Source: Escherichia phage vB_EcoM-613R2
DNA length: 26,627 nucleotides
Reading direction: 5' to 3' (one strand)
Sequence record: ON470591.1
This document shows positions 1,428 through 25,982 of the stretch, piece by piece. Position 1 is the first letter of the stretch; every line of letters begins with the position of its first letter. Made by a program: the position numbers and the translations under genes. The notes under the pieces are model-generated. The model searched no databases and was not told the DNA's origin. It saw nothing but the letters and a program-made list of their open reading frames with translations.

Positions 1428-4273
1428 TATGCAAGCCTCACAATATAATTAAATGCGATGTTTTTAACGGTGTTTTCCGCGTTACCAGCAGCGTTAACGG
1501 TGATGGTGTGTCCATGTGAACCAATCTTAACAGAGTGCGTATGAGCGCCAATACCAACAGTGTGTGCATGTGCCCCAGCACTTGTAGCGGTACCTGATAC
1601 TGAGTGGGTATGTGCGCCAGAAGAAGGCACAGTTCCATTCCCCACCACCGTGCCACTTGATGAACCATCCAGCCAGTCGAAATTCATACCGCCACTGTTT
1701 GGTCTCCTTAATGGAACGGTATGAGTATGTGCGCCAGCACTATTTGCAGTACCAGATACATTGTGGGTATGTGCACCTGTGTTATTCGTTGATTTAGTAC
1801 CGTAATCAAACGACGATGTGGTTTTCGTACCCAAATCCGTACTGGATGCGCTGGCACTGTGGGTGTGCGATTTAATGCCATCCTGTTCCTGAGACAATAC
1901 GGCCCGACCACTGGCGGGTTTGCCCTTGATTGTCCAGCCGCGCATATCTGGAATAACACCAGAAGGATAGGCAATAGCCAGTTTCGGATATGCTGCCTTA
2001 TCAAACGTCTGCCCCTGCATGATTGCATAACCTGCAGGTGGCGTATCTGATGGCCACGGCAGCGGAACACCTGGCGGAAACGCTTCAATATTTGCCGAGC
2101 CGTCAAATTTTACGCCGTTAATTGTCCTTGCCGTTTTCAGCTTTGTTGCTGTAGCAGCATTGCCGGATAGTTCGCCTGAAAGACCACCGCTGAATGTCTG
2201 TTTCGCCATCCATGTCTGAGCTTCGTCGATAATTGGCACACGTCTTGTCGTGATCGTGCGGCTTCCCGGATTTCCTGAAATGCGAACCATAAAAAAGCGG
2301 TAGTTGGCTTTACTTACAGTGCTGCGCCATACATGCATTGAGCGTCCCGAACCAGAATCATCACTCGGACCGACTGAGATGTTTATCAGGTTGCCATCAA
2401 TGACGCCCCAGTCCATACCGTCGGGAATATTGGTCATGTTATCAAGCCGAACGGTTATCAGACTGCCCGGCACAAAATCGTAGGTCTGCCAGTCCAGGCT
2501 GGTGAGCTTTGCCACAGCACCGCCGATACCCAGATTCAGGGGAAGTGAATACGAGGTGTAGACTTCCCGCCATTCGCTCCATGAGCTGCCGGTAAAGACG
2601 CGCTCAAAGGTGCGGCCTTTAAGGGTTGTACCTGTTCCGGCAGTTGTATAACGCTGCCATACATTAACACCATCAAACCGCCTCAACACTTCCAGAATGC
2701 CGAGTACAGTCACGCCGTTTCCGTCCAGTACTGGACCGTTGGTCGCTTTACCTGTAACGCTGTAAATACCTGGTGAGGTTACATCATTCAAATCACCTTC
2801 GTAATAACGACTCTCTGACTGATGACCGACTCTTAACCACGGTTCCCACTGCGGATTTGATGCATCCCAGCTTGCCGCAAGACAGCGGACATACATATTT
2901 CCACGGCGAGTGGTATAACGTTGCGTTCTTCCATAATTTCCGCCTTCGAGGATCTCAAGCATCCCCTGAGCAAAGCCGCCTTCCTCTGGATAATTGCGTT
3001 CATATGAAGCTATAGCTGAGCTACTGTTACGCCATAAACCAAGATGCTCGGCGGCTCCAAGCGTATTCAGGTCTATAGTCGTACTCAAAGGGCGGGTAGC
3101 AGATTGAGTGTGACGCCATACGCCCCACGGACCATCAGTGCCATTCCACTTATTGGCGAGTTTACGCATGTATACATTGCCGTCTCTCGTGGTAAAGCGT
3201 TGCGTACCTGCAAAATGGCCGGCAGCAAAAACCTCAAGCACACCGACAGCATTATCTTCCGGGAAATTTTTCTCCAGTGTTGCGTTGGTGGATGTTGCTT
3301 TAGACCAGATACCTGAATAAGCCTTAACAGGACCAAACGTATTCAGATCAGCATCAAGCGGCATTTCGCCATTGTTTTTCATAAACGTCAGGCTGGTAAC
3401 GCCAACATTGTCCAGAAAAGCTGATTTATCCTGGATATCTGCACCGTTCTGATTTTTCGCCAGACGTGAATTTGCGTTGTCATTTGCTGCCTTGACCGCT
3501 TTTGGCGTTGCCGCCTGCGTTTCAGACGTACTGTTAGTGGCACTACTGAGCTGAACTATCCCTTTTTGTGCCGTGGTGGCATTCTGGGCGGTATATTTTC
3601 CGTCAGCCAGGTCATATGCAGCCTTAACAGCCTTAGGCGTCGCTGCGAGCTTTTCAGACGTGCTATTGGTGGCATTACTGAGTTGAACAATGCCTTTTGA
3701 TGTTAAAGTTGCATCAGGATGATTACGTGATTGCTCATGTTTTACAATAGCTTGCTTAAGCCGCTTTGCTGAAACAGCCAGGGAATCATCTGTACCTGCA
3801 TCAATTTCTTGTTCATTAGCAAATCTTGCTACTCCAACAACAGTTTCGGTTGCGGGAGGGTTAATAAACTCAACATCACCAAATGTAATGTTTTTAGTAT
3901 CAAGATTTTTAATTGCTATATCACTTGATATTAAAGCAATTGTAGAAGATGCTTTATTTATTATTACTTGTTCTTGCGAGTATACAGCAAACAATGTTCC
4001 TTTATTTGTATACAAACCTATTGTATGGACAACATACTCATCTTTACTATCATCCTTCGCAGTTACATGAATGGTATCAGGAGAAACGACTTTGCCTCCT
4101 ATTGTGGTAAGTCGCTTTATTTCATCTGTTATTTTTGTTTGTGTGGTTGATGTGGCATAATATCTACTACCTAAACCAACAGAAACGATCTCAACTTTAT
4201 TTGTTCCAGTCTTGTTGGCATTAACCAGCGCCTTACGCCCGGCGTCAGTCATCGTAAATAATAATTTACTCAC
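1427..4273 (-). CDS. Tail fiber protein (P2 H / lambda Stf-like long fiber)
   Basis: 948 aa. GTG start at 4273 preceded by AAGGA. Two tandem copies of the phage fiber repeat ([26 protein letters not shown]), internal R(F/Y)TTR.GN.Y.R repeats, and a His-rich C-terminus with repeated G-A-H-T-H-(S/N/T)-V motifs typical of fiber receptor-binding tips. Lies between the baseplate I gene and tfa. Confidence 0.9.
3476..3718 (-). repeat. Two tandem in-frame copies of the phage tail fiber repeat inside the fiber gene
   Basis: Protein residues about 186-222 and 231-266 are near-identical ([31 protein letters not shown] versus [31 protein letters not shown]); the underlying DNA is visibly repeated. Confidence 0.8.
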
Positions 4274-15353: not shown

Positions 15354-16397
15354 TTAAACCACCTTAGCCACCAGATAGGCATCAGCCACACCAGGATTAG
15401 GCAGTGGAGATGACTTCATGGCAACATAACGGCCAGCCGGCTTACGAGTTACCCAGGTGTCTGGAACTCGTGGTGACTCAACAATCGTTAGAGTCTTTTC
15501 GGCGTCATCTACAAGCTCTACAGCACCATACAGCATCGTTCCTCGACCAGGAGAGCCAAAGAGGATCTTATCTTCCGGTACTAATGGTTCAGGTTTTCCT
15601 GTTTTATCATTGCGAATAAGTTCGTCGTAACCATAAAAATCGACACCTTCAAGATTGCCATAATGAGTTACGCCTTCTTCTAACTCTTTAGGCTCAATAT
15701 ACCCAAGCTCTTTTCGGCGATTATCAAGATATTTAGTTACTGCTTCATTTTTAACGAAGGCATCAACAACTTTTGCGCCCATTACGGCAACACGAGGTGT
15801 AAAACCTGAAGTTAGTGATACCCGACGTTTCCAGTTGCGAACATTGACTAACGGATCTGATTTTGCTGCACTCCATAAATCATCACCTGTCAGTTCAAGA
15901 TATGGTTTATCTCCTTCCTCTTCAGGCCAAAAATAAACTGTGTCATCCACTCCTTCACCAACAATATCAACCTGCCCCGTAAACAAGACTTGTGCACACA
16001 TCCATTCTTCACGGCGGTTAACCATTTCATCAAGCTCAAGCAAATCTTTACCTAATTGCTCGGCGGCTCGTTCTGCTGGCGATTTTGCGTTGTAAATATT
16101 CTCACCCGGAAGCCTGTTTAAAAGCAGCTCGGCTGTTGTTACCAAATCAGGTGCAACAAGTGGTGGCTCCAGAGTTCTCGTTACAAAGCCGCGTCGCTCA
16201 ACGGTTTTTGAGCCAAAACCTTTACCAACAAACGGAGCCATAGTACGGCCACCGCGAACAAAATCCAGATCAACTTTCTTTGTATTAAAGGTCTGAACAC
16301 CAGGAAAAAAGGTACGAAGAAGAAAACGACGAGCCTTGAAATTCTGAATAACAGGCTCAAGCATCGTACGTCGTTCAAAAATATCAATATTCGGCAT
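15354..16397 (-). CDS. Major capsid protein (lambda gpE family)
   Basis: 347 aa, close to lambda E (341 aa). Follows a decoration-protein gene as in lambda D-E. ATG start. Confidence 0.85.
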   Translation of the reverse strand: MPNIDIFERRTMLEPVIQNFKARRFLLRTFFPGVQTFNTKKVDLDFVRGGRTMAPFVGKGFGSKTVERRGFVTRTLEPPLVAPDLVTTAELLLNRLPGENIYNAKSPAERAAEQLGKDLLELDEMVNRREEWMCAQVLFTGQVDIVGEGVDDTVYFWPEEEGDKPYLELTGDDLWSAAKSDPLVNVRNWKRRVSLTSGFTPRVAVMGAKVVDAFVKNEAVTKYLDNRRKELGYIEPKELEEGVTHYGNLEGVDFYGYDELIRNDKTGKPEPLVPEDKILFGSPGRGTMLYGAVELVDDAEKTLTIVESPRVPDTWVTRKPAGRYVAMKSSPLPNPGVADAYLVAKVV

Positions 16398-19689: not shown

Positions 19690-21546
19690 CTATATGGTTA
19701 CGCCTTTACTTATAACTCTACGGCGTCTTCTACGTATACCTGACGAGTTCTGCACATACACATTACCTCGCATTTCCTGTTCGGCAAGCCAGTTAAAATT
19801 AGGGTTCAGAATTTCCATCGCGGCAGTTGCATAGTTACGGCAATCAAGAGGCTCGTTACGCTCGTAGACTTTCACCCACTTTTCTTTTGTCTGCCCATTT
19901 TTATATTCAAATATTTTTTTCTCTGATAATAATCCTTTAAAGTATTCGGTATCATATCCTCTGTCAGAATCTAATGGGAAATGCATATAACCAGGACCAG
20001 GATCATGTAGTTTAATTCTTGCCATGATGGTCCCTTTACCATCATCAACCCCCAAATTAAACAACATAGCACCCACACGGTTATTATTACTTGGCTTTCC
20101 TATAAATGGTAAACCTACCCCACCACGCCCCCTGATAGAGTATATTCGCCTTGATTCTCTCGGCTTAGTAAAGCGATATACCTCTGTCGTAAAATGCCCA
20201 CCAGAGTCAATACAAACGGAAGAAATCTGTAATTTTCGACCGTCACGGAATGACCAGCTACGGAGTAAGTATTCATCAAGTTGTTTCCAGACAACATCTT
20301 GTGCGGGATCACCTGGGAATATTTTATATTCTATCCCCCATGACTCCTTACCTTTTCCCCAACCGACCAATTCACAAACTAAATACGTGTCCTGTACGTC
20401 AACACCAGCACTTAACAATAAAACATCATCTGGTAAAAACTCTTCAAACCTTATTCTGCGTTGCAACAAGTATTCAGGATCGATATCGTCTTTAGCATCC
20501 TCTTTCCATGGCTCACCCAGCTTAAGGTTAATAAACTCCATTAATCCATTTTTATCGCGGTTTCTGGTTGCTTCCGTAAATTCTTCAACCAGCTCTGACA
20601 ATGCAACCCACGGGGAGTAAAGACTGTTAATATGAAAACCAACAATACCTTTAACTCCAGTATGTTCAGCTATCCATACCCCCTTCGCCAACCAATCAAC
20701 GTCTGGTTTACCAGATCCGCGCATAATCCCGCCGCACTCACAGCACTCATATCTGGCCGTTTCCGGTAACGCCTCACCTGAATCGCTCTTATCCCATCTG
20801 ACTTGCGACCATTTCATCACCTGCATGGTGCCACAACATGGGCAAGGAACATGGTAGTAACGCTGATCGGAGAGCTTAAACCACTTGTGGATTTTGCTTG
20901 TTTCCTCCAAAACAGGAGTAGAAACAAAAACTTTCTTACGATTATGAAAGTTGGTAGTACGCTGAATACCTAGTTTTAGTGGGTCGCCCTCCTGCGTCAC
21001 ACCGTAACGATCAATCTCATCACCTAACAGTATTCGAATTGGCCTGGATGCAAGACCTGCTGGGGAATTAGCACCAACAAGTGCTATATATCCACCAGCG
21101 TAATGCTTCATACGTATAGTCGTGCTGGACTTTTTGGCTGCACCGCGCCCCTCTTTCCCTTCATGCAGCTTGTGTTTCAAACCAGGGGAATATTTGAACG
21201 TCGGATCAATACGCTCTTTTGAAAAAGCCTCAGCCGCCTCTACCGTTGGATAAATCATCAACTGAGGAGATGGCTCCTGATCTGCAAAGTAACCCATAAC
21301 ATTTAGCTGTAATTCGGATTTACCAATTTGCGAGCTACATTGCATCACTACTGTTTCTGTATCAGCGTCACCAATAACATCCATTGGTTCACGCAAATAT
21401 GGCACTCGGCTTGTACGCCACGGCCCTGGCTCTGGAGACGTTCCCGGCGCTACATGACGATACTTATCAGCCCATTCGGAAACAGTTAGCCGTGATTTAG
21501 GGCGAAGCGCACGGAAAAAAGCGGTGCTCCATACTGTTTCGCCCAT
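19690..21546 (-). CDS. Terminase large subunit (lambda gpA family)
   Basis: 618 aa. The N-terminus (TVSEWADKYRHV) resembles the lambda gpA N-terminal region. Cys-rich pairs (CPCCG, CCECGG) are present. Sits between the small terminase and the gpW-like gene. Confidence 0.9.
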   Translation of the reverse strand: MGETVWSTAFFRALRPKSRLTVSEWADKYRHVAPGTSPEPGPWRTSRVPYLREPMDVIGDADTETVVMQCSSQIGKSELQLNVMGYFADQEPSPQLMIYPTVEAAEAFSKERIDPTFKYSPGLKHKLHEGKEGRGAAKKSSTTIRMKHYAGGYIALVGANSPAGLASRPIRILLGDEIDRYGVTQEGDPLKLGIQRTTNFHNRKKVFVSTPVLEETSKIHKWFKLSDQRYYHVPCPCCGTMQVMKWSQVRWDKSDSGEALPETARYECCECGGIMRGSGKPDVDWLAKGVWIAEHTGVKGIVGFHINSLYSPWVALSELVEEFTEATRNRDKNGLMEFINLKLGEPWKEDAKDDIDPEYLLQRRIRFEEFLPDDVLLLSAGVDVQDTYLVCELVGWGKGKESWGIEYKIFPGDPAQDVVWKQLDEYLLRSWSFRDGRKLQISSVCIDSGGHFTTEVYRFTKPRESRRIYSIRGRGGVGLPFIGKPSNNNRVGAMLFNLGVDDGKGTIMARIKLHDPGPGYMHFPLDSDRGYDTEYFKGLLSEKKIFEYKNGQTKEKWVKVYERNEPLDCRNYATAAMEILNPNFNWLAEQEMRGNVYVQNSSGIRRRRRRVISKGVTI

Positions 21547-21551
21547 GAGGT

Positions 21552-22103
21552 TTATTCTTCCTGCTTAATAAATCGGGATTCCTGGAGCGCCTGAAGCGCA
21601 AAATTAATCTCGTCTTCAATAATGCGCTCGATCTCCCTGGCTGTTTTGCCTTCACAACGGGGAGCTGCTCTTGGAGCAATACTAAATAAGCGGCTACGCA
21701 ATTCATTAGCTGCCAGAAATGCATCATCCCTGACCGCATCTTTAGCGATGAGAGAGCCTTCCTTTTCTTCAAATTCAAGGCGTTTCAGCTTTGCCTGATA
21801 AATTTTTTCTGCGGTCTTAGCCTTGTTGAATTGCACCGCAACACCGGAAGTACCACCAGCTAATCCGGCATCATCAGCGGGTAACTCTGGTTGTTCCGAA
21901 GATATCCCATGCCCTCTTTTTCCATTTTCAGCAGATACCTCACGACCAACCTGTCGGCTCGCTTCATAAGCCGCACTGGCTTTATCAAAATCCAGCTTGC
22001 CGCTTTTCAGCACTGGAATGCGACCGGAACGACAGAGCTTCGTAACCATTGCCGGAGAAATACCTTTCCGGCGGGCAAACTCTGACTTACTGACGATGGC
22101 CAT
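21552..22103 (-). CDS. Terminase small subunit (lambda Nu1-like, N-terminal helix-turn-helix)
   Basis: I place the start at the ATG at 22101-22103 (MAIVSKSEFARRKGISPAMV...), which overlaps the upstream TAA (TAATG). The ORF track opens 9 nt earlier at a TTG. The N-terminal HTH followed by PVL.SG.K resembles Nu1. Confidence 0.75.
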   Translation of the reverse strand: MAIVSKSEFARRKGISPAMVTKLCRSGRIPVLKSGKLDFDKASAAYEASRQVGREVSAENGKRGHGISSEQPELPADDAGLAGGTSGVAVQFNKAKTAEKIYQAKLKRLEFEEKEGSLIAKDAVRDDAFLAANELRSRLFSIAPRAAPRCEGKTAREIERIIEDEINFALQALQESRFIKQEE

Positions 22104-22693
22104 TACTTGCAACCATTAGCAAGATACTGAACAAATCCCTCATGCGTTTCATGCGCGTCGTGGTACTGACGATAAACATCCAGCAACAATGCAATTTCCA
22201 TATCCGTCGCGGGAATACGTTCTTTATCAATAGCCAGGTACTTAATTTGAACAACAGGGGAAGAATTATCGTCTTCTTCCTGCGGCTGTTCATCGCTTAA
22301 CATTTCGTCAAGCTCTGCATCATTAAACCCAAGCAGATCAATATCAAAATCATCATCCATTAACTCTTTGACTTCTTCGGCCAGAAGCTGCATATCCCAG
22401 CCAGCATTTAAGGCCAGCTTGTTATCTGCAATCCTGTAAGCCTTCTTCTGTTTTTCAGAAAGGTTACTCAACCGAATCGCCGGAACTTTATCCATTTCCA
22501 GAATTTCGGCTGCTGCAAGCCGCCCATGCCCCGCAATCAGTTCATTCTTTTCATCGATCAGCACAGGATTAGTGAAACCGAACTCACGGATACTGTTCAC
22601 CAACTGTTCAACTTGCTCATCTGAATGAGTCCGTGAATTTTTGGCATATCTGAGCAACTTACCGACTGGTAAATATTCGATTTTTAGAGCCAT
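22103..22693 (-). CDS. ParB N-terminal-domain (ParB-like nuclease/sulfiredoxin-fold) protein, copy 1
   Basis: 196 aa with the ParB-NTD-type core NSRTHS...PVLIDE.NELIAGHGRLAAA and QKKAYRIADNKLALNAGWD. Translationally coupled to the small terminase gene. Paralogous to 25359-25982. Confidence 0.8.
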   Translation of the reverse strand: MALKIEYLPVGKLLRYAKNSRTHSDEQVEQLVNSIREFGFTNPVLIDEKNELIAGHGRLAAAEILEMDKVPAIRLSNLSEKQKKAYRIADNKLALNAGWDMQLLAEEVKELMDDDFDIDLLGFNDAELDEMLSDEQPQEEDDNSSPVVQIKYLAIDKERIPATDMEIALLLDVYRQYHDAHETHEGFVQYLANGCK

Positions 22694-23249
22694 TTTTTAA
22701 CCGCCATAACACAACAGGTTAAAGAAAACTGTTTAACTTATTGATACTAAAAGAGAAAAATGACGATCTTTTTACTCATAAAAAATCACACAAACCAGCA
22801 TAATTATCTGATTTTATTAAGTTTTTATAAGTAAAAAGGATCTTGCGATGGTGTTTTGGTTAAAAGATTGGATGTATTTGCATGATTTATAACGATTTTT
22901 ATCAGAACAACATCACATTGGTTAAAGATCTGCGCGTATCTTGATGATCTAAAAGAAAATTTTCCACTTTCTTTTTACCAGTACAAATACAGAAAAAATC
23001 ACGTTTTCCCGATATTTTTCAATGAGATGAGTAAATTTCTTTTACCGCAACTTTTAACCTAACTTTTTTCACGTTTAGCTAGCCGAATATCGGGGTTCGA
23101 ATGACCCGCATCCAACGCTTTTGGCCAGAAGGACCCAATTCTGCCGGACGATGAAACGATGCTCGTGCTCCCCCACAGACAGCCAGCGAGCGACGCTACA
23201 GAACACAGTGAATACACTCTGCATAACAACACCATCAACCACACGATGA
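22694..23249. other. Long non-coding region of about 556 bp, AT-rich in its lower part and GC-richer in its upper 160 bp; candidate packaging (cos) and/or regulatory region
   Basis: No convincing ORF on either strand: the two small minus-strand ORFs overlap each other and have no Shine-Dalgarno. It is the only large gap in the window and sits upstream of the packaging operon. Confidence 0.4.
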
Positions 23250-23969
23250 TTAACGAGAGAAAGTCTTAGAAAGAATGTCATCAATAGCCTTTGTGACTTC
23301 ATCAGCAAACGCATCCTCACCAGCACGCAGCGCCACGCCATGCCAATCAAGACGCTGCGAATAGTTAGGTTGCTGGATAAACGTAAGGATCAACGTAGGA
23401 CGCCGCCCAACGCGCTGCCAGACGCCTGGTTGAAGCGGGTTACTTGTACCAGGTCGAACAACAAAAAACTCCGTAGGCTTGCCCTGACGGCGATTTTGAT
23501 GCGCATCTCGCTGAACTCTTAGGCCAGATAAGACCTGCTGTAATTGCCCCCGCGAAATATTCCCGTATTTGTCCAGCTTTGCGCCGGGACCAGGAGCAAG
23601 CTGCCAGCCGTTAGGCAAATATCCACCAGCCCTTAGCGCCCCTTCTGAGCGTTTGTACTGTCGTTGTCCACCTTCGATTTGCGGAGTCAACGTTACAGGG
23701 GCTGGCGTTCCTCCCCATTCACGAGCATACACAATGGCTGTAGGATCACTCTTCTTTGCGGCCAAAACGTAAGTAGAGTTCTGAATCCACGGCGTGGGCC
23801 TGTCAAATACCCGATTAATTTCATTCTTAATCGCAGCCTGAGAAGCCTTTGCCGTTCTGGTTGCCGCAAGCGCCATTGCGAACGGCAATTCGCGTTCTTC
23901 AAGGCGCTGGAGTTGTCGTTGAATATCCTGAGAAGAAAAATCCATCTTTATCTCAATTCTGTCAGCCAC
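23250..23969 (-). CDS. Hypothetical protein (239 aa), last gene of a three-gene operon with the ParB/methyltransferase genes
   Basis: GTG start at 23969 preceded by a strong AGGAGG 5 nt upstream; an alternative ATG lies at M9. GC-rich. Gly/Pro/Arg-rich central region. No motif recognised. Confidence 0.6.
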   Translation of the reverse strand: MADRIEIKMDFSSQDIQRQLQRLEERELPFAMALAATRTAKASQAAIKNEINRVFDRPTPWIQNSTYVLAAKKSDPTAIVYAREWGGTPAPVTLTPQIEGGQRQYKRSEGALRAGGYLPNGWQLAPGPGAKLDKYGNISRGQLQQVLSGLRVQRDAHQNRRQGKPTEFFVVRPGTSNPLQPGVWQRVGRRPTLILTFIQQPNYSQRLDWHGVALRAGEDAFADEVTKAIDDILSKTFSR

Positions 23970-23985
23970 CAGCGCCTCCTACACA

Positions 23986-25359
23986 CTACTTAATCAACGG
24001 CCGGAAAGCCGCCAGCACATCATCAGATCGTCCGATTGTTGAACCACCAGGCAACGGCAACTCAAACTCAAAACGAACAGCTTTCTCCAGACTCGCCCAA
24101 CTAAGGGAATCATCGTTAATGACGTGCAAATACCAGCTCTTACAGTTGAATATTGACCGCTTAATCCTGAAACCATGTACACGACACAACTGCTTCACTT
24201 CATCATCAGAGTGAAACTTCTGGTAAAACCAGTGCCCCTTCCGGTACAACGCGGTAAAACCGTTATGATCAATAAAATAAAGCCGGCTTTTGGAACTCGC
24301 CGCTTGTGTTTGCTTCAGGACTGTTTCCAGCTCTCCACGGCTACGACCAGAAAAGAATATTGACCCACCAGCTTTACACAGGCCTTTCAGAACCGTCAGA
24401 ACGGACCATTCAGCCTCGACACTATCGACCGAGTTCAAAACGCTATCGCAAATCACGTAGTCGTAACGCCCTCGCGTTTTTAAGTCGTCCACCAGCGTAT
24501 CAATCATCCGGTTTGTTGCGGTCCTATCCAGAGTGTTTCCAGCGCCCTTACGGCGGAAAAGCTCGAGATCATGCAGGTTATATCCCTTTGCCCTGAGCAT
24601 TCGCGCGTAGTCTCCCTGCCCCGAACCAAAATCAATTCCTCTTGGCGTCTTGGCGATGATCGGGAGGATCAACGACTCATACAGGTTTGATTTCAGGCTG
24701 CCACCATTACGCAACCGCATAAGCTGCGCATACGTCTGGATGTATGTTGTTTTCTCCAGATGAGAATACTCAAATACACCATAAGTTTTATTCAGATAAC
24801 TTTGGTATTTTCCCTTCTCAACATCAGGGATCACAAACACCGTTAGCGGTGTGCGCGTCATCTTCGCTGCTAATGCATACTGAGCACAGTGAATAACCTC
24901 GCCAGACTGAGTAGCAACACAACCACCCCACGGACCATACTTGATAACCAGTTCCGCTATGTTCTTTCGAACATATGCCATTTTCGCGCGCATATTGCCT
25001 GAGATCTGGCTTGCCGATACCTGAACAAAACCATGCTTATCTTCCAGACCGGACACCCTGCAACGCTCATCTCCGCTATCAAAATCCGTTCCGTTATGCA
25101 GTTGGTTAAACCGTACTTCGTCGTATACCGTCGTTTCACAGGGCAACACATACACCGCAGCACGCGTTATTCCCAACTTACGTAGCGCCTTCGTCCTTTG
25201 GTGTCCCGCCACCAGCAAATCGCCACGCACTATCAATGGCTTCACAAGCCCCAGCTCCCTGACGCTTTCCGCCAGCCTCGCAAGATCATCCTCACCGATA
25301 AAACGCGGGTTATATTCCGCGCCACGTAGGTGCGTTATGTCGTAATTGAGGTGAAGCAT
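23986..25359 (-). CDS. Fusion protein: N-terminal ParB-like domain plus C-terminal class I SAM-dependent methyltransferase domain
   Basis: I place the start at the ATG at 25357-25359, which overlaps the upstream TGA; the track opens at a GTG 6 nt earlier. N-terminus has a ParB-NTD-like LVAGHQRTKA. C-terminal half carries Rossmann methyltransferase motifs: motif I GIDFGSGQGDYARML, an acidic residue after beta-2 (NLHDLEL), YDYVICDSVLNSV, and LKGLCKAGGSIFFSG. No DPPY/NPPF amino-methyltransferase motif seen. Confidence 0.75.
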   Translation of the reverse strand: MLHLNYDITHLRGAEYNPRFIGEDDLARLAESVRELGLVKPLIVRGDLLVAGHQRTKALRKLGITRAAVYVLPCETTVYDEVRFNQLHNGTDFDSGDERCRVSGLEDKHGFVQVSASQISGNMRAKMAYVRKNIAELVIKYGPWGGCVATQSGEVIHCAQYALAAKMTRTPLTVFVIPDVEKGKYQSYLNKTYGVFEYSHLEKTTYIQTYAQLMRLRNGGSLKSNLYESLILPIIAKTPRGIDFGSGQGDYARMLRAKGYNLHDLELFRRKGAGNTLDRTATNRMIDTLVDDLKTRGRYDYVICDSVLNSVDSVEAEWSVLTVLKGLCKAGGSIFFSGRSRGELETVLKQTQAASSKSRLYFIDHNGFTALYRKGHWFYQKFHSDDEVKQLCRVHGFRIKRSIFNCKSWYLHVINDDSLSWASLEKAVRFEFELPLPGGSTIGRSDDVLAAFRPLIK

Positions 25360-25982
25360 CAGCACACCTCCCCAGCCAGCAATGCGGATACAAATCCGAT
25401 ATAGCTGCCATTATCATCAACATAACGAGACACCGCGCAGTCAAAACGATCCGCTTCCTCATCCGTTGCCGGGATTTTATGACCTCCAAATGACAGGTAC
25501 TGAACTTTTACGCCTGATTTGGCCTCATCCTTCTCAAATGGGATATCCATACCCTCTGTGTCATCGTAGACCGCCGCACTCAATAAGTTATCCAGTTCGC
25601 GCTGAGTAAAACCAATTGAGTCCAGAGCAAAATCATCGGCCGCAAGATCTGCAAGCTCCGCGCTTAACAGCTCTTCATCCCAACCAGCATTCAGCGGAAT
25701 ACGGTTGTCGGCCAGACGATATGCCTTCTTCTGATTCTCCGTTAGCCCTTCCAGAACAATGCAGGGAACGTCATCCATCCCCAACTGAGTGGCCGCAGCA
25801 ATTCGACCATGACCAGCAATTACAACGTTGTTCTCGTCTATCAGGATCGGATTAGTCCATCCGTACTCCTGTATGCTGGCAACAATCTGATCTACCTGCT
25901 CCACGGAGTGTGTGCGAGCGTTCTTTTCATAACCAATCAACACAGAAAGTGGTAAAGAAACCACATTAAGATGTTTTGTCAT
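25359..25982 (-). CDS. ParB N-terminal-domain (ParB-like nuclease/sulfiredoxin-fold) protein, copy 2
   Basis: 207 aa. Collinear similarity to copy 1 (NARTHS...NPILIDENNVVIAGHGRIAAA...QKKAYRLADNRIPLNAGWD...K.QYL....KIPATD). ATG at 25982. First gene of the three-gene operon. Confidence 0.8.
   Translation of the reverse strand: MTKHLNVVSLPLSVLIGYEKNARTHSVEQVDQIVASIQEYGWTNPILIDENNVVIAGHGRIAAATQLGMDDVPCIVLEGLTENQKKAYRLADNRIPLNAGWDEELLSAELADLAADDFALDSIGFTQRELDNLLSAAVYDDTEGMDIPFEKDEAKSGVKVQYLSFGGHKIPATDEEADRFDCAVSRYVDDNGSYIGFVSALLAGEVC

Follow-up and report, generated by a model that had tools for sequence, protein, structure and literature searches.

The 556-bp gap at positions 22694-23249 of the stretch of DNA analyzed here (26,627 nt, hereafter the window) is very probably the lambda-type cos region of an approximately 48-kb Escherichia coli phage-plasmid, a myovirus. 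The cos element is of an ordinary kind that can now be placed to the base, and its unusual features are only a long repeat array and an interposed ParB-like gene. A first-pass annotation had nominated the gap as a candidate cos, a proposal that is supported by a large terminase (TerL) of the gpA family, by the homologous positions at which phage records break, by a cosQ heptamer in the lambda register, and by repeats that begin at the R3 position.

The gap is bounded by the ATG of a gene for a 196-aa ParB_N protein and by the stop codon of a 239-aa gene. As the annotation had stated, it is non-coding and the only large gap: it is the largest in the chain of minus-strand open reading frames of the window (the runner-up is approximately 234 bp), its 556-bp homolog in plasmid pECO-b75 (NZ_CP009861.1, 21933-22488) is empty in the RefSeq annotation, and no annotated feature lies beneath it in 62 plasmids from PLSDB. 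Eight open reading frames of 20-91 codons can be drawn in the gap, none of which is annotated or conserved, being poorly conserved or interrupted by indels in relatives; the earlier statement that the upper part holds no credible reading frame thus stands. The division by composition holds equally well, with an AT-rich lower part (22694-23094, 401 bp, 29.7% GC) and a GC-rich upper part (23095-23249, 155 bp, 53.5% GC). The lower part essentially holds the lowest-GC 401-bp stretch of the window, in which stretches of this length have a mean GC content of 42.8% (sd 5.3%, minimum 28.2%). Only approximately 46 bp of the GC-rich part (23095-23140) are conserved; the remaining spacer shows identities of 0.13-0.4 and large indels relative to 20 Salmonella-type relatives, with a small patch at approximately 23171-23190 reaching 0.66. 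Read in gene order, the predicted layout would begin with a non-functional spacer of about 109 bp and continue with cosQ, 23 bp of conserved linker sequence, cosN, an I2-like segment, and about 350 bp of AT-rich DNA extending to the ParB-like ATG:

23250-23969, minus strand: 239-aa gene, whose stop codon adjoins the gap
23141-23249, no strand assigned: non-conserved GC-rich spacer between the stop codon of the 239-aa gene and cos, without a credible open reading frame
23130-23136, minus strand: GGGTCCT, a cosQ-like heptamer; its first base is 30 nt from the predicted top-strand nick, on the 5′ side
23095-23106, minus strand: cosN, predicted 12-nt cohesive end 5′-GGTCATTCGAAC-3′, from the break points of phage records
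23060-23094, minus strand: I2-like segment, left-end bp 13-47, with the conserved sequence TTCGnCTAGCTA and an A6 tract; CTAGCTA occupies 23076-23082

We infer the virion ends from the positions at which deposited records, which are assemblies of relatives, start and stop. The records of Yersinia phages vB_YpM_39 and vB_YpM_41 (approximately 98% identical) break at 23107|23106, ending in ...GATGCG and starting with GGTCATTCGAAC. The break in the record of vB_YpM_44 (approximately 98% identical) falls at 23095|23094, exactly 12 nt beyond that point; this record ends in ...GCGGGTCATTCGAAC and starts with CCCGATG. All three records derive from a single submission and are flagged circular, and a literature search found no paper on these phages or on pECO-b75. 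Five Vibrio phage records break at bases homologous to cosN: those of PVP-XSN, R20L, and XM1 start at GGTGCTCGCGAC, and those of R19R and X29 break 10 and 11 nt after that start point, respectively. The XM1 record carries the 12-mer GGTGCTCGCGAC at both of its ends, with an additional A at the 3′ end. Defined ends are reported in the X29 paper, as steep drop-offs in coverage at the contig ends; virion ends are not discussed in the XM1 paper.

These break points, which give both the location and the 12-nt length of the predicted end sequence, place the putative cosN nicks at 23107|23106 on the gene strand and at 23095|23094 on the other strand. Each is uncertain by approximately 1 nt, because the second Vibrio break point falls 10, 11, or 12 nt away and because the nick reported for Serratia phage vB_SspM_BZS1 sits 1 nt out of register with the conserved flanks. 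The annotation could not identify cosN by eye; it can now be assigned to 23095-23106, which lies in the GC-rich upper part of the gap and not in the AT-rich part. A 5′ polarity for the 12-nt extension is suggested by the terminal duplication in XM1 and by precedent within the gpA family (lambda, N15, and BZS1). The first nick is preceded by CG (TGCG|GG), and the second, on the other strand, by GG (CGGGG|GTTCGAATGACC); CG is therefore not found at both nicks, the second having CC in place of the conserved CG of lambda, a deviation common to the Vibrio relatives. Conservation relative to 20 Salmonella-type loci peaks at 0.99 over 23091-23110 and is at least 0.86 over 23091-23140, above that of the flanking coding DNA. 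A symmetric 16-nt overhang, with CG|GG on both strands, was considered and rejected, as no record breaks at the corresponding positions. When viral contigs were searched with the cosN 16-mer, the related matches were all contig-internal and mostly from isolate genomes; three further matches came from unrelated contigs that lack cosQ and were set aside as chance matches. Among 12 related contigs recovered from metagenomes, only one ends near cos.

The cosQ element has been described by Feiss and co-workers as a highly conserved sequence of 7 bp. GGGTCCT occurs once in the 26.6-kb window, is invariant in all E. coli- and Salmonella-type relatives, and starts 30 nt before the nick, a spacing common to lambda, N15, and XM1 and only 1 nt different in X29 (29 nt) and BZS1 (31 nt). 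The GGGTCCT of lambda is presumably cosQ itself, at bp 48473-48479, the coordinates that Wieczorek and Feiss reportedly gave for this element in 2001. We predict that GGGTCCT at 23136-23130 is cosQ, which by analogy with lambda would function in termination. The 23 bp that link it to cosN are conserved. Beyond cosN, the I2-like segment aligns in register with the corresponding sequences of lambda and N15 (TTTTCGCTA/TTCTCGCTA), and lambda and the window share TT at bp 20-21 and GCTA at bp 24-27, followed by an AT-rich I2-like stretch. CTAGCTA is common to the window, the Vibrio phages, and BZS1, and the I2-like segment is conserved in Salmonella-type relatives. The register of cosQ and the conservation of these elements are direct observations, as is the enrichment of repeats in the adjoining AT-rich DNA.

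Within the 401-bp AT-rich part there are seven exact copies of GGTWAAA, compared with 0.30 expected from dinucleotide shuffles (0/1000 reach seven), although this P value is optimistic because the pattern was chosen after the sequence had been viewed. The whole window contains 15 copies. With degenerate copies included, the array comprises 8-10 repeats over approximately 350 bp, with the consensus GGTWAAA(A)G; the copies are 7-10 bp long, mixed in orientation, and irregularly spaced (13-67 bp), and their positions and orientations are kept across lineages. The short direct repeats that the annotation had seen at both ends, copies of TTTTAACC at 22695-22702 and 23052-23059, both belong to this larger family. 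The repeats and the associated candidate sites for integration host factor (IHF) are as follows:

23051-23059, minus strand: repeat a, GGTTAAAAG, left-end bp 48-56; at the R3 position of lambda and N15 and invariant in relatives
23038-23046, minus strand: repeat b, GGTAAAAGA, bp 61-69; kept by every lineage at bp 61/62
22970-22979, minus strand: repeat c, GGTAAAAAGA, bp 128-137; four of five lineages keep it at bp 128-130
22920-22928, plus strand: repeat d, GGTTAAAGA, bp ~181, opposite orientation; position conserved
22858-22867, plus strand: repeat e, GGTTAAAAGA, bp ~243, opposite orientation; from the repeat search
22830-22842, plus strand: repeat f, AGTAAAAAGGATC, opposite orientation; forms the left arm of an inverted pair that is conserved
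22801-22813, minus strand: IHF-like site, AATCAGATAATTA, bp 294-306, halfway from repeat f to repeat g; differs from WATCAANNNNTTR at one position
22765-22776, minus strand: repeat g, AGTAAAAAGATC, bp 331-342; pairs with repeat f as the right arm and reads GGGTAAAAAGAT in Salmonella-type relatives
22734-22746, minus strand: second match to the IHF consensus, TATCAATAAGTTA, perfect; from the IHF scan
22717-22725, plus strand: repeat h, GGTTAAAGA, bp ~384, opposite orientation; conserved at bp 384-386 in all lineages
22694-22702, minus strand: repeat i, GGTTAAAAA, directly adjoining the ATG of the ParB-like gene

The R3 site of lambda and N15 occurs at about bp 48-65 (PMC9026076), and the first repeats of other phages occupy similar positions (GTTAACA at bp 50 in XM1; GGTAACA at approximately bp 47 in BZS1). 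In the inverted repeat formed by f and g, the 13 outer pairs persist across 10 sequences; both arms differ at one position, where six sequences have CG and four have UA. Repeat i may not be a true site, given that it overlaps the ribosome-binding region, and the plaque-forming phage vB_YpM_44 carries a natural 90-bp deletion, from about 22880 to 22969, that removes repeat d. Repeat d is therefore dispensable, so the array must include copies that are not essential as cosB, and certain copies may bind a different protein or have a different function.

The IHF-like site at 22801-22813 occupies the same position in all five lineages, with its consensus positions kept and its four N positions varying. 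The same scan finds the lambda site at bp 79, between R3 and R2, which is the location of I1. The perfect match at 22734-22746 constitutes weaker evidence because it is kept in only one other lineage, and in the E. coli type the interval from the bp 61 copy to the bp 128 copy holds no conserved IHF match. The site at bp 294-306 is approximately 200 bp further from cosN than lambda I1, and IHF may have a role there. By analogy with lambda, the array as a whole would represent an expanded cosB bound by the small terminase. The annotation had recommended a search for IHF-like and repeated terminase-binding-type motifs, and this search yielded both the GGTWAAA array and a conserved IHF-like site. 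It had also expected terminase-binding repeats just upstream of the packaging genes; a repeat array is in place there, but the first downstream gene is ParB-like and not terS:

22103-22693, minus strand: ParB_N/Srx-like gene, 196 aa, first gene after cos; Pfam ParB_N E 3.8e-8, phrog_620 E 4.6e-75
21552-22103, minus strand: small terminase subunit (TerS), 183 aa; phrog_57 E 7.4e-42, helix-turn-helix matches at residues 5-39
19690-21546, minus strand: large terminase (TerL), lambda gpA family; GpA_ATPase E 1.6e-75, GpA_nuclease E 1.1e-84

The TerL gene lies 1.1 kb downstream of cos in the same operon direction, and its product is 28% identical to lambda gpA over 599 aa (E 3e-62); the portal is also of the lambda family. 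TerS is homologous to the BZS1 protein annotated as Nu1 (26% identity, E 1e-10). Its comparison with lambda Nu1 gave a BLASTP E value of 0.4 and no Pfam Nu1 match, which places it outside detectable gpNu1-family similarity, and no significant match was obtained among solved structures. A search of genome contigs with TerS yielded no confirmed locus, and a relative with an apparently 49%-identical TerS was dropped from a test of co-variation between TerS and the repeats because its terS is frameshifted. The N-terminal 133 aa of the 196-aa protein are 62% identical to the corresponding XM1 protein. Only the ParB N-terminal domain was recovered when this protein was searched against Pfam, with no separate DNA-binding domain detected, and a literature search for ParB-like genes beside terminase genes returned nothing relevant.

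The candidate element shares with lambda a gpA-family TerL, a predicted 12-nt cohesive end, CG before the putative first nick, GGGTCCT 30 nt before the nick, a first repeat at the R3 position (bp 48), an IHF-like site between inverted repeats, and a location directly upstream of the packaging operon. It differs from lambda in having 8-10 short copies over approximately 350 bp where lambda cosB has three 16-bp R sites in 120 bp, in the placement of the IHF-flanked inverted pair (bp 266-342 versus bp 48-115), in the ParB-like gene between the array and terS, and in its terminase, with TerL only 28% identical and TerS devoid of detectable Nu1 similarity. The cohesive-end sequences are unrelated, with matches at 3/12 positions: GGTCATTCGAAC agrees with GGGCGGCGACCT at positions 1, 2, and 4 only, and is not a close match. 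The element would therefore work like lambda cos while falling outside the narrow group with lambda-like end sequences. N15 is likewise a plasmid prophage with a gpA-type terminase; its cosQ precedes cosN by 30 nt, and its record annotates a 5′ end of 12 nt. Unlike the present element, it has a lambda-like end sequence and a simple cosB with a single critical R3, its terS starts at bp 89, and it is a siphovirus maintained as a linear plasmid with telomeres, whereas the element described here is a circular plasmid and a myovirus.

For BZS1, a 12-nt 5′ overhang has been verified by PhageTerm and by PCR and sequencing (PMC7556043). The order of elements matches that in the window, with GGGTCCT, approximately 30 nt (31), the 12-nt end, GCGTCTAGCTA, and, starting at about bp 47, repeats of the GGTAACA type; cosQ and CTAGCTA are 54 nt apart in both, TerL is of the gpA family and 37.5% identical to that of the window, and TerS is homologous. 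In contrast, BZS1 has only three tandem GGTAACA repeats, its terS starts at bp 75 with no ParB gene between cos and terS, it is not a plasmid but inserts into a tRNA gene, and its reported nick carries the 1-nt offset described above. The closest characterized phages outside the E. coli/Yersinia group are Vibrio phages (TerL 63-65% identical), among which X29, phi 2, Rostov 7, and XM1 have been placed in a proposed family, 'Weiviridae' (PMC11432961). The order cos, ParB-like gene, terS, terL is found in X29 and XM1, and the Vibrio phages share with the window the sequence TTGGGTCCT...GCG|GGT.......AC|CCCG..TTCG.CTAGCTA, with record ends at homologous bases. They differ in having only about 140 bp between cosN and the ParB ATG, five GTTAACA repeats that are essentially all direct and 16-24 bp apart, and a different TerS recognition-helix region, and they are described as phages, not plasmids.

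By analogy with lambda, TerS would bind the repeats through its N-terminal helix-turn-helix, with the copy at bp 48, and probably also those at bp 61 and 128, mattering most. A bend of the IHF type may bring together the inverted pair at bp 266-342. Repeat-bound TerS would then anchor the gpA-family TerL on cosN, where two nicks 12 nt apart would generate the 5′ overhang GGTCATTCGAAC. Packaging would proceed toward decreasing window coordinates, through the ParB-like gene, terS, terL, and onward, until cosQ permitted a terminating cut at the next cos. After injection, the ends would anneal and be ligated to give the circular plasmid form seen in the window.

A different account accepts cosQ and cosN as described and regards the AT-rich array as mainly regulatory, acting either as an operator or activator-dependent late promoter of ParB-terS-terL or as a loading site for a ParB/Srx-like protein. 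The array is approximately three times the length of lambda cosB and runs as far as the ParB-like start codon; cos is followed by a ParB_N gene in the Vibrio relatives as in the window, three ParB_N proteins are encoded around cos, and one repeat is dispensable. In the Vibrio phages, moreover, a plausible TTGCTT-17-TATACT promoter overlaps the repeats in a by-eye reading. Nonetheless, we consider this account unlikely. The first repeat falls exactly at the R3 position, and Pfam recognizes nothing in the 196-aa protein beyond the ParB N-terminal domain. In addition, BZS1 retains similar repeats beside a homologous TerS with no adjacent ParB gene, which points to TerS as the binder. The late promoter that had been offered as an alternative finds no support in a promoter and terminator scan, which scored zero sigma-70-like sites over both strands, against 2.1 expected, and detected no intrinsic terminator and no upstream terminator that would require a new promoter; an activator-dependent promoter in the gap is possible.

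It is very improbable that the AT-rich repeats are iterons of a replication origin or a partition site (parS) of the phage-plasmid. AT-rich DNA with dispersed short repeats beside a ParB-like gene, in an element kept as a plasmid, would fit such a function, but in pECO-b75 repA is approximately 22 kb away and the ParA partition gene approximately 16 kb away. The short repeats, with their mixed orientation and irregular spacing, are unlike tandem iterons. A homologous repeat region also occurs in X29 and XM1, which infect Vibrio, and in BZS1, which integrates, and one phage is viable despite having lost 90 bp of the array. It is scarcely credible that the region encodes a small or structured RNA or is the remnant of a tRNA or att site. 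The plus strand does read GGGGTTCGAATGACCC, which resembles a tRNA T arm, with the T-loop-like GGTTCGAAT within cosN; sense-strand RNA of 22694-23094 folds better than shuffles (z = -3.4), and a 31-nt imperfect inverted repeat spans 22768-22838. However, ARAGORN detects no tRNA genes in the window, and nearly all copies of the element are extrachromosomal plasmids. The covariance-model scan that had been suggested (Rfam, 22300-23700, E-value-mode search) returned best matches at chance level, far below gathering scores. A structured hairpin at 22765-22842 was rejected on the basis of RNAalifold analysis of 10 diverged sequences, which does not retain the inner helix, gives a consensus energy of only -10.75 kcal/mol, and leaves just 13 outer pairs, corresponding to the inverted repeat motifs. 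With neither an Rfam family nor a conserved hairpin, the earlier suggestion of a small RNA is left without support.

A more speculative proposal, which we think has little chance of being correct, is that the GGTWAAA array is a loading platform for the adjoining ParB/Srx-like protein and not a classical cosB. If so, this protein would spread or bridge over approximately 350 bp and work together with the terminase, either as a third subunit of packaging specificity or as a switch between plasmid maintenance and packaging. Such a platform would explain the conservation of the order cos-ParB-terS-terL from Vibrio phages to enterobacterial phage-plasmids and the cluster of three ParB_N genes around cos.

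Of 5,426 complete E. coli genomes, at least 72 carry the element, that of ATCC 25922 among them, and in 71 of these 72 it is plasmid-borne, mostly on molecules of 47-50 kb; members of the phage-plasmid family also occur in Salmonella and Klebsiella and among Yersinia-infecting phages. The phage-plasmid carries a lambda-type head and packaging module and encodes RepA and ParA elsewhere. Assignment of the cos region would fix the packaging site and virion ends of this family to within approximately one base, making it possible to orient the family's records correctly, and would enable cosmid-type transduction tests and prediction of the DNA that its particles can mobilize. That the cosQ heptamer of lambda persists, 30-nt spacing included, in an element whose TerL is only 28% identical should also aid the prediction of cos in other gpA-type phages.

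The 556-bp interval at 22694-23249 is bounded by the stop of a 239-aa ORF (23250) and the start of a 196-aa ORF (22693), both on the minus strand, and represents the largest break in the chain of long ORFs, all minus-strand, that tile the window. The same 556 bp carries no feature in the RefSeq annotation of plasmid pECO-b75 (NZ_CP009861.1), and PLSDB lists none beneath it in 62 plasmids. These observations bear out the non-coding gap described in the first-pass annotation, as does base composition its division into AT-rich lower and GC-rich upper parts: the lower 401 bp (22694-23094), with 29.7% GC, is essentially the lowest-GC stretch of that length in the window (mean 42.8%, sd 5.3%), versus 53.5% in the upper 155 bp. 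The repeat pair TTTTAACC remarked upon earlier is likewise present in the gap.

At an identity of at least 95%, the window sequence has matches in 72 complete E. coli genomes; in 71 of these the match resides on a plasmid, usually 47-50 kb in size. Further plasmid matches occur in E. albertii, E. fergusonii and Klebsiella, and in Salmonella at ~70% identity, and three Yersinia pestis phages (vB_YpM_39, 41 and 44) are ~98% identical to the element. Given these plasmid and phage matches, and because repA and the ParA partition gene of pECO-b75 both lie distant from the gap, we conclude that the element is a phage-plasmid and that the gap is neither its plasmid origin nor its centromere. The surrounding genes are as follows.

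25359-25982, minus strand: ParB_N/Srx-domain protein, 207 aa, upstream of cos
23986-25365, minus strand: ParB_N and methyltransferase fusion, 459 aa, upstream of cos
23250-23969, minus strand: 239-aa protein just upstream of cos; phrog_1924 "minor tail protein", E 2.5e-97
22103-22693, minus strand: ParB_N-domain protein, 196 aa, first gene downstream of the gap in the direction of transcription
After the ParB_N gene: small terminase (TerS), phrog_57, E 7e-42, with an N-terminal helix-turn-helix
Downstream: large terminase (TerL), 28% identity to lambda gpA and hits to both gpA domains (E 1e-75 and 1e-84)
Downstream of the terminase genes: DUF6148 protein
Downstream of the terminase genes: lambda-family portal

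Three ParB_N/Srx-domain proteins, all minus-strand, thus surround cos, and those of 196 and 207 aa both match phrog_620. The order cos-ParB-terS-terL is common to Vibrio phages X29 and XM1 and absent from Serratia phage BZS1. The "minor tail protein" label is doubtful, because that gene lies at the far right genome end among ParB and methyltransferase genes, off the tail module; Pfam gives no match for the protein. Outside the window, upstream of the cos-proximal genes, is a tRNA gene annotated as tRNA-Ile in pECO-b75 (16242-16317) and as tRNA-Met in a Yersinia phage record (85-160).

The position of the virion ends is suggested by the break points of deposited records. Those of vB_YpM_39 and vB_YpM_41 end in GTTGGATGCG and start with GGTCATTCGAACCCCG, and that of vB_YpM_44 ends in GATGCGGGTCATTCGAAC and starts with CCCGATG; an interval of exactly 12 nt, GGTCATTCGAAC (minus strand 23106..23095), separates the two break points. 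By TerL identity (63-65%), the next closest are the Vibrio phages X29, phi 2, Rostov 7, XM1, PVP-XSN, R19R and R20L, in which the order of the ParB-like gene, terS and terL is identical wherever gene tables were examined. Their records break at bases homologous to the Yersinia break points, three beginning at GGTGCTCGCGAC and those of R19R and X29 starting 10 and 11 nt further on. The linear record of vB_VpaM_XM1 (PP580404.1) has GGTGCTCGCGAC at both start and end, plus a final A, as would be expected if a 5′ overhang had been filled in; this record is therefore probably 13 nt too long, apparently through a filled-in, A-tailed cohesive end left untrimmed. In BZS1, whose TerL is 37.5% identical to that of the element and whose cos layout is the same, a 12-nt 5′ overhang was verified by PhageTerm, PCR and sequencing (PMC7556043). 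One genome-length metagenome contig (OJJP01000130.1, 48,228 bp) has its end 29 nt beyond the predicted top-strand nick, lending weak support to the predicted ends; a break in coverage at cos in the sample may be the cause. Three others break elsewhere. From these record ends of close and distant relatives, the putative cosN, which had escaped detection by eye, can be placed at 23095-23106, and we infer the polarity of its overhang. On the plus strand the site (23091-23106, CGGGGTTCGAATGACC) holds a tRNA T-loop-like GGTTCGAAT and the palindrome TTCGAA. Three exact matches to this 16-mer elsewhere in IMG/VR lack cosQ and are apparently due to chance.

The cos regions, in gene orientation with slashes marking nicks, compare as follows.

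Lambda: ACGGGTCCTTTCCGGTGATCCGACAGGTTACG / GGGCGGCGACCT / CGCGGGTTTTCGCTA
N15: ACGGGTCCTTTCCGGCAATCCGCCCTGTTACG / GGGCGGCGTCCG / CGCAGATTCTCGCTA
Window: TTGGGTCCTTCTGGCCAAAAGCGTTGGATGCG / GGTCATTCGAAC / CCCGATATTCGGCTAGCTA
XM1: TTGGGTCCTTCTGGGCAAAGCTGCAAGGAGCG / GGTGCTCGCGAC / CCCGCGTTTCGTCTAGCTA

In all four, GGGTCCT starts exactly 30 nt before the nick, and the heptamer is single-copy in the 26.6-kb window. Its counterpart at lambda bp 48473-48479 is what we take to be lambda cosQ. In the account of Feiss and co-workers (PMC4669245), termination requires cosQ, a site 7 bp long and highly conserved. In an alignment of the window with 20 Salmonella-type loci (TerS mostly 83-88% identical; one locus with a frameshifted terS), identity is 0.86-0.99 over 23091-23140, peaking at 0.99 over cosN and exceeding that of flanking coding DNA (0.6-0.85), and falls to 0.13-0.4, with large indels, over most of 23141-23249. 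With conservation confined to the cosQ-cosN side, the functional share of the GC-rich part would appear to be its inner 46 bp only, corresponding to cosQ-cosN. In one Salmonella-type copy (L042, IMGVR_UViG_2880350357_000007, 3001-3540), frameshifts and stops break terS, and cos, the ParB-like gene and terL seem intact; a second copy in that genome (L033) has an intact terS. L042 could be in decay or depend on a helper, or the breaks could be a sequencing error.

The AT-rich part contains seven copies of GGTWAAA in 401 bp (0.30 expected; none of 1000 dinucleotide shuffles reaches seven) of 15 in the whole window. Sites in this array, which counts degenerate RGTWAAA copies, are numbered in left-end bp from the predicted nick between 23107 and 23106 toward lower coordinates.

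bp 48, 61, 128 and 331: RGTWAAA, forward
bp 181, 243, 271 and 384: RGTWAAA, reverse
bp 294-306: IHF-like site AATCAGnnnnTTA, present in 5 of 5 lineages, N positions varying

Most repeats keep position and orientation in four Salmonella-type lineages despite divergence of the intervening DNA. The first copy spans bp 48-56; R3 of lambda and N15, for which the spacing to cosN is critical, lies at ~bp 48-65 (PMC9026076). XM1 has a repeat of its own, GTTAACA, from bp 50, and BZS1 a GGTAACA repeat from ~bp 47. TerS would be the favoured binder of the repeats, because BZS1 has a homologous TerS and no ParB gene between cos and terS. Across the E. coli- and Salmonella-type sequences read, the TerS helix-turn-helix region does not vary; Vibrio has a different one, and the repeat sequence changes in step. 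This parallel is not decisive, since the ParB-like protein, too, has a different C-terminus there. The IHF-like site falls halfway between two 13-bp repeat copies in inverted orientation, an arrangement resembling lambda R3-I1-R2 but ~200 bp further from cosN; the same scan on lambda recovers a site at bp 79, the position of I1 between R3 and R2. Phage vB_YpM_44 (OR545055.1) carries a natural 90-bp deletion (~22880-22969) that removes the least conserved stretch and the repeat at bp 181, and it was isolated as a phage nonetheless; this part of the array is therefore dispensable.

The alternatives raised by the first-pass annotation, a late promoter or a small RNA, are not supported. Scanning revealed neither a sigma-70-like promoter nor an intrinsic terminator. 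As in lambda, late transcription may simply run through cos from genes upstream on the same strand; a promoter that depends on an activator is possible. In Vibrio relatives (L006, L007 and L008), a plausible sigma-70 promoter (TTGCTT, 17 nt, TATACT), seen by eye at left-arm bp ~85-125, overlaps the GTTAACA repeats that immediately precede the ParB-like gene, and the E. coli element has no detectable equivalent. For a structured RNA, the single-sequence fold is strong (z = -3.4), but this originates in the inverted repeat, and the covariance-model scan returned no Rfam family, nor is any tRNA predicted in the window. Only 13 outer hairpin pairs, the repeat motifs themselves, are kept across lineages, and such conservation suits protein sites better than it does an RNA. 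The repeats are unlikely to serve as an origin or parS, given how they are arranged and the locations of repA and parA.

The proposal of a cos site is instead supported by the record break points, the GGGTCCT register, the 12-nt interval, the repeat at the R3 position and conservation. The site would function as lambda cos does, and the two have cosQ, the 12-nt interval, the R3 position and the CG before the first nick in common. The second-nick flank differs, however, and no more than 3 of 12 positions in the end sequence agree with lambda. By end-sequence identity, which defines the narrow lambda-like group, the element falls outside that group, and its TerS has no detectable likeness to lambda Nu1. 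Two features of this cos region are unusual: an array of 8-10 repeats that extends over ~350 bp, and a conserved ParB-like gene residing between the array and terS.
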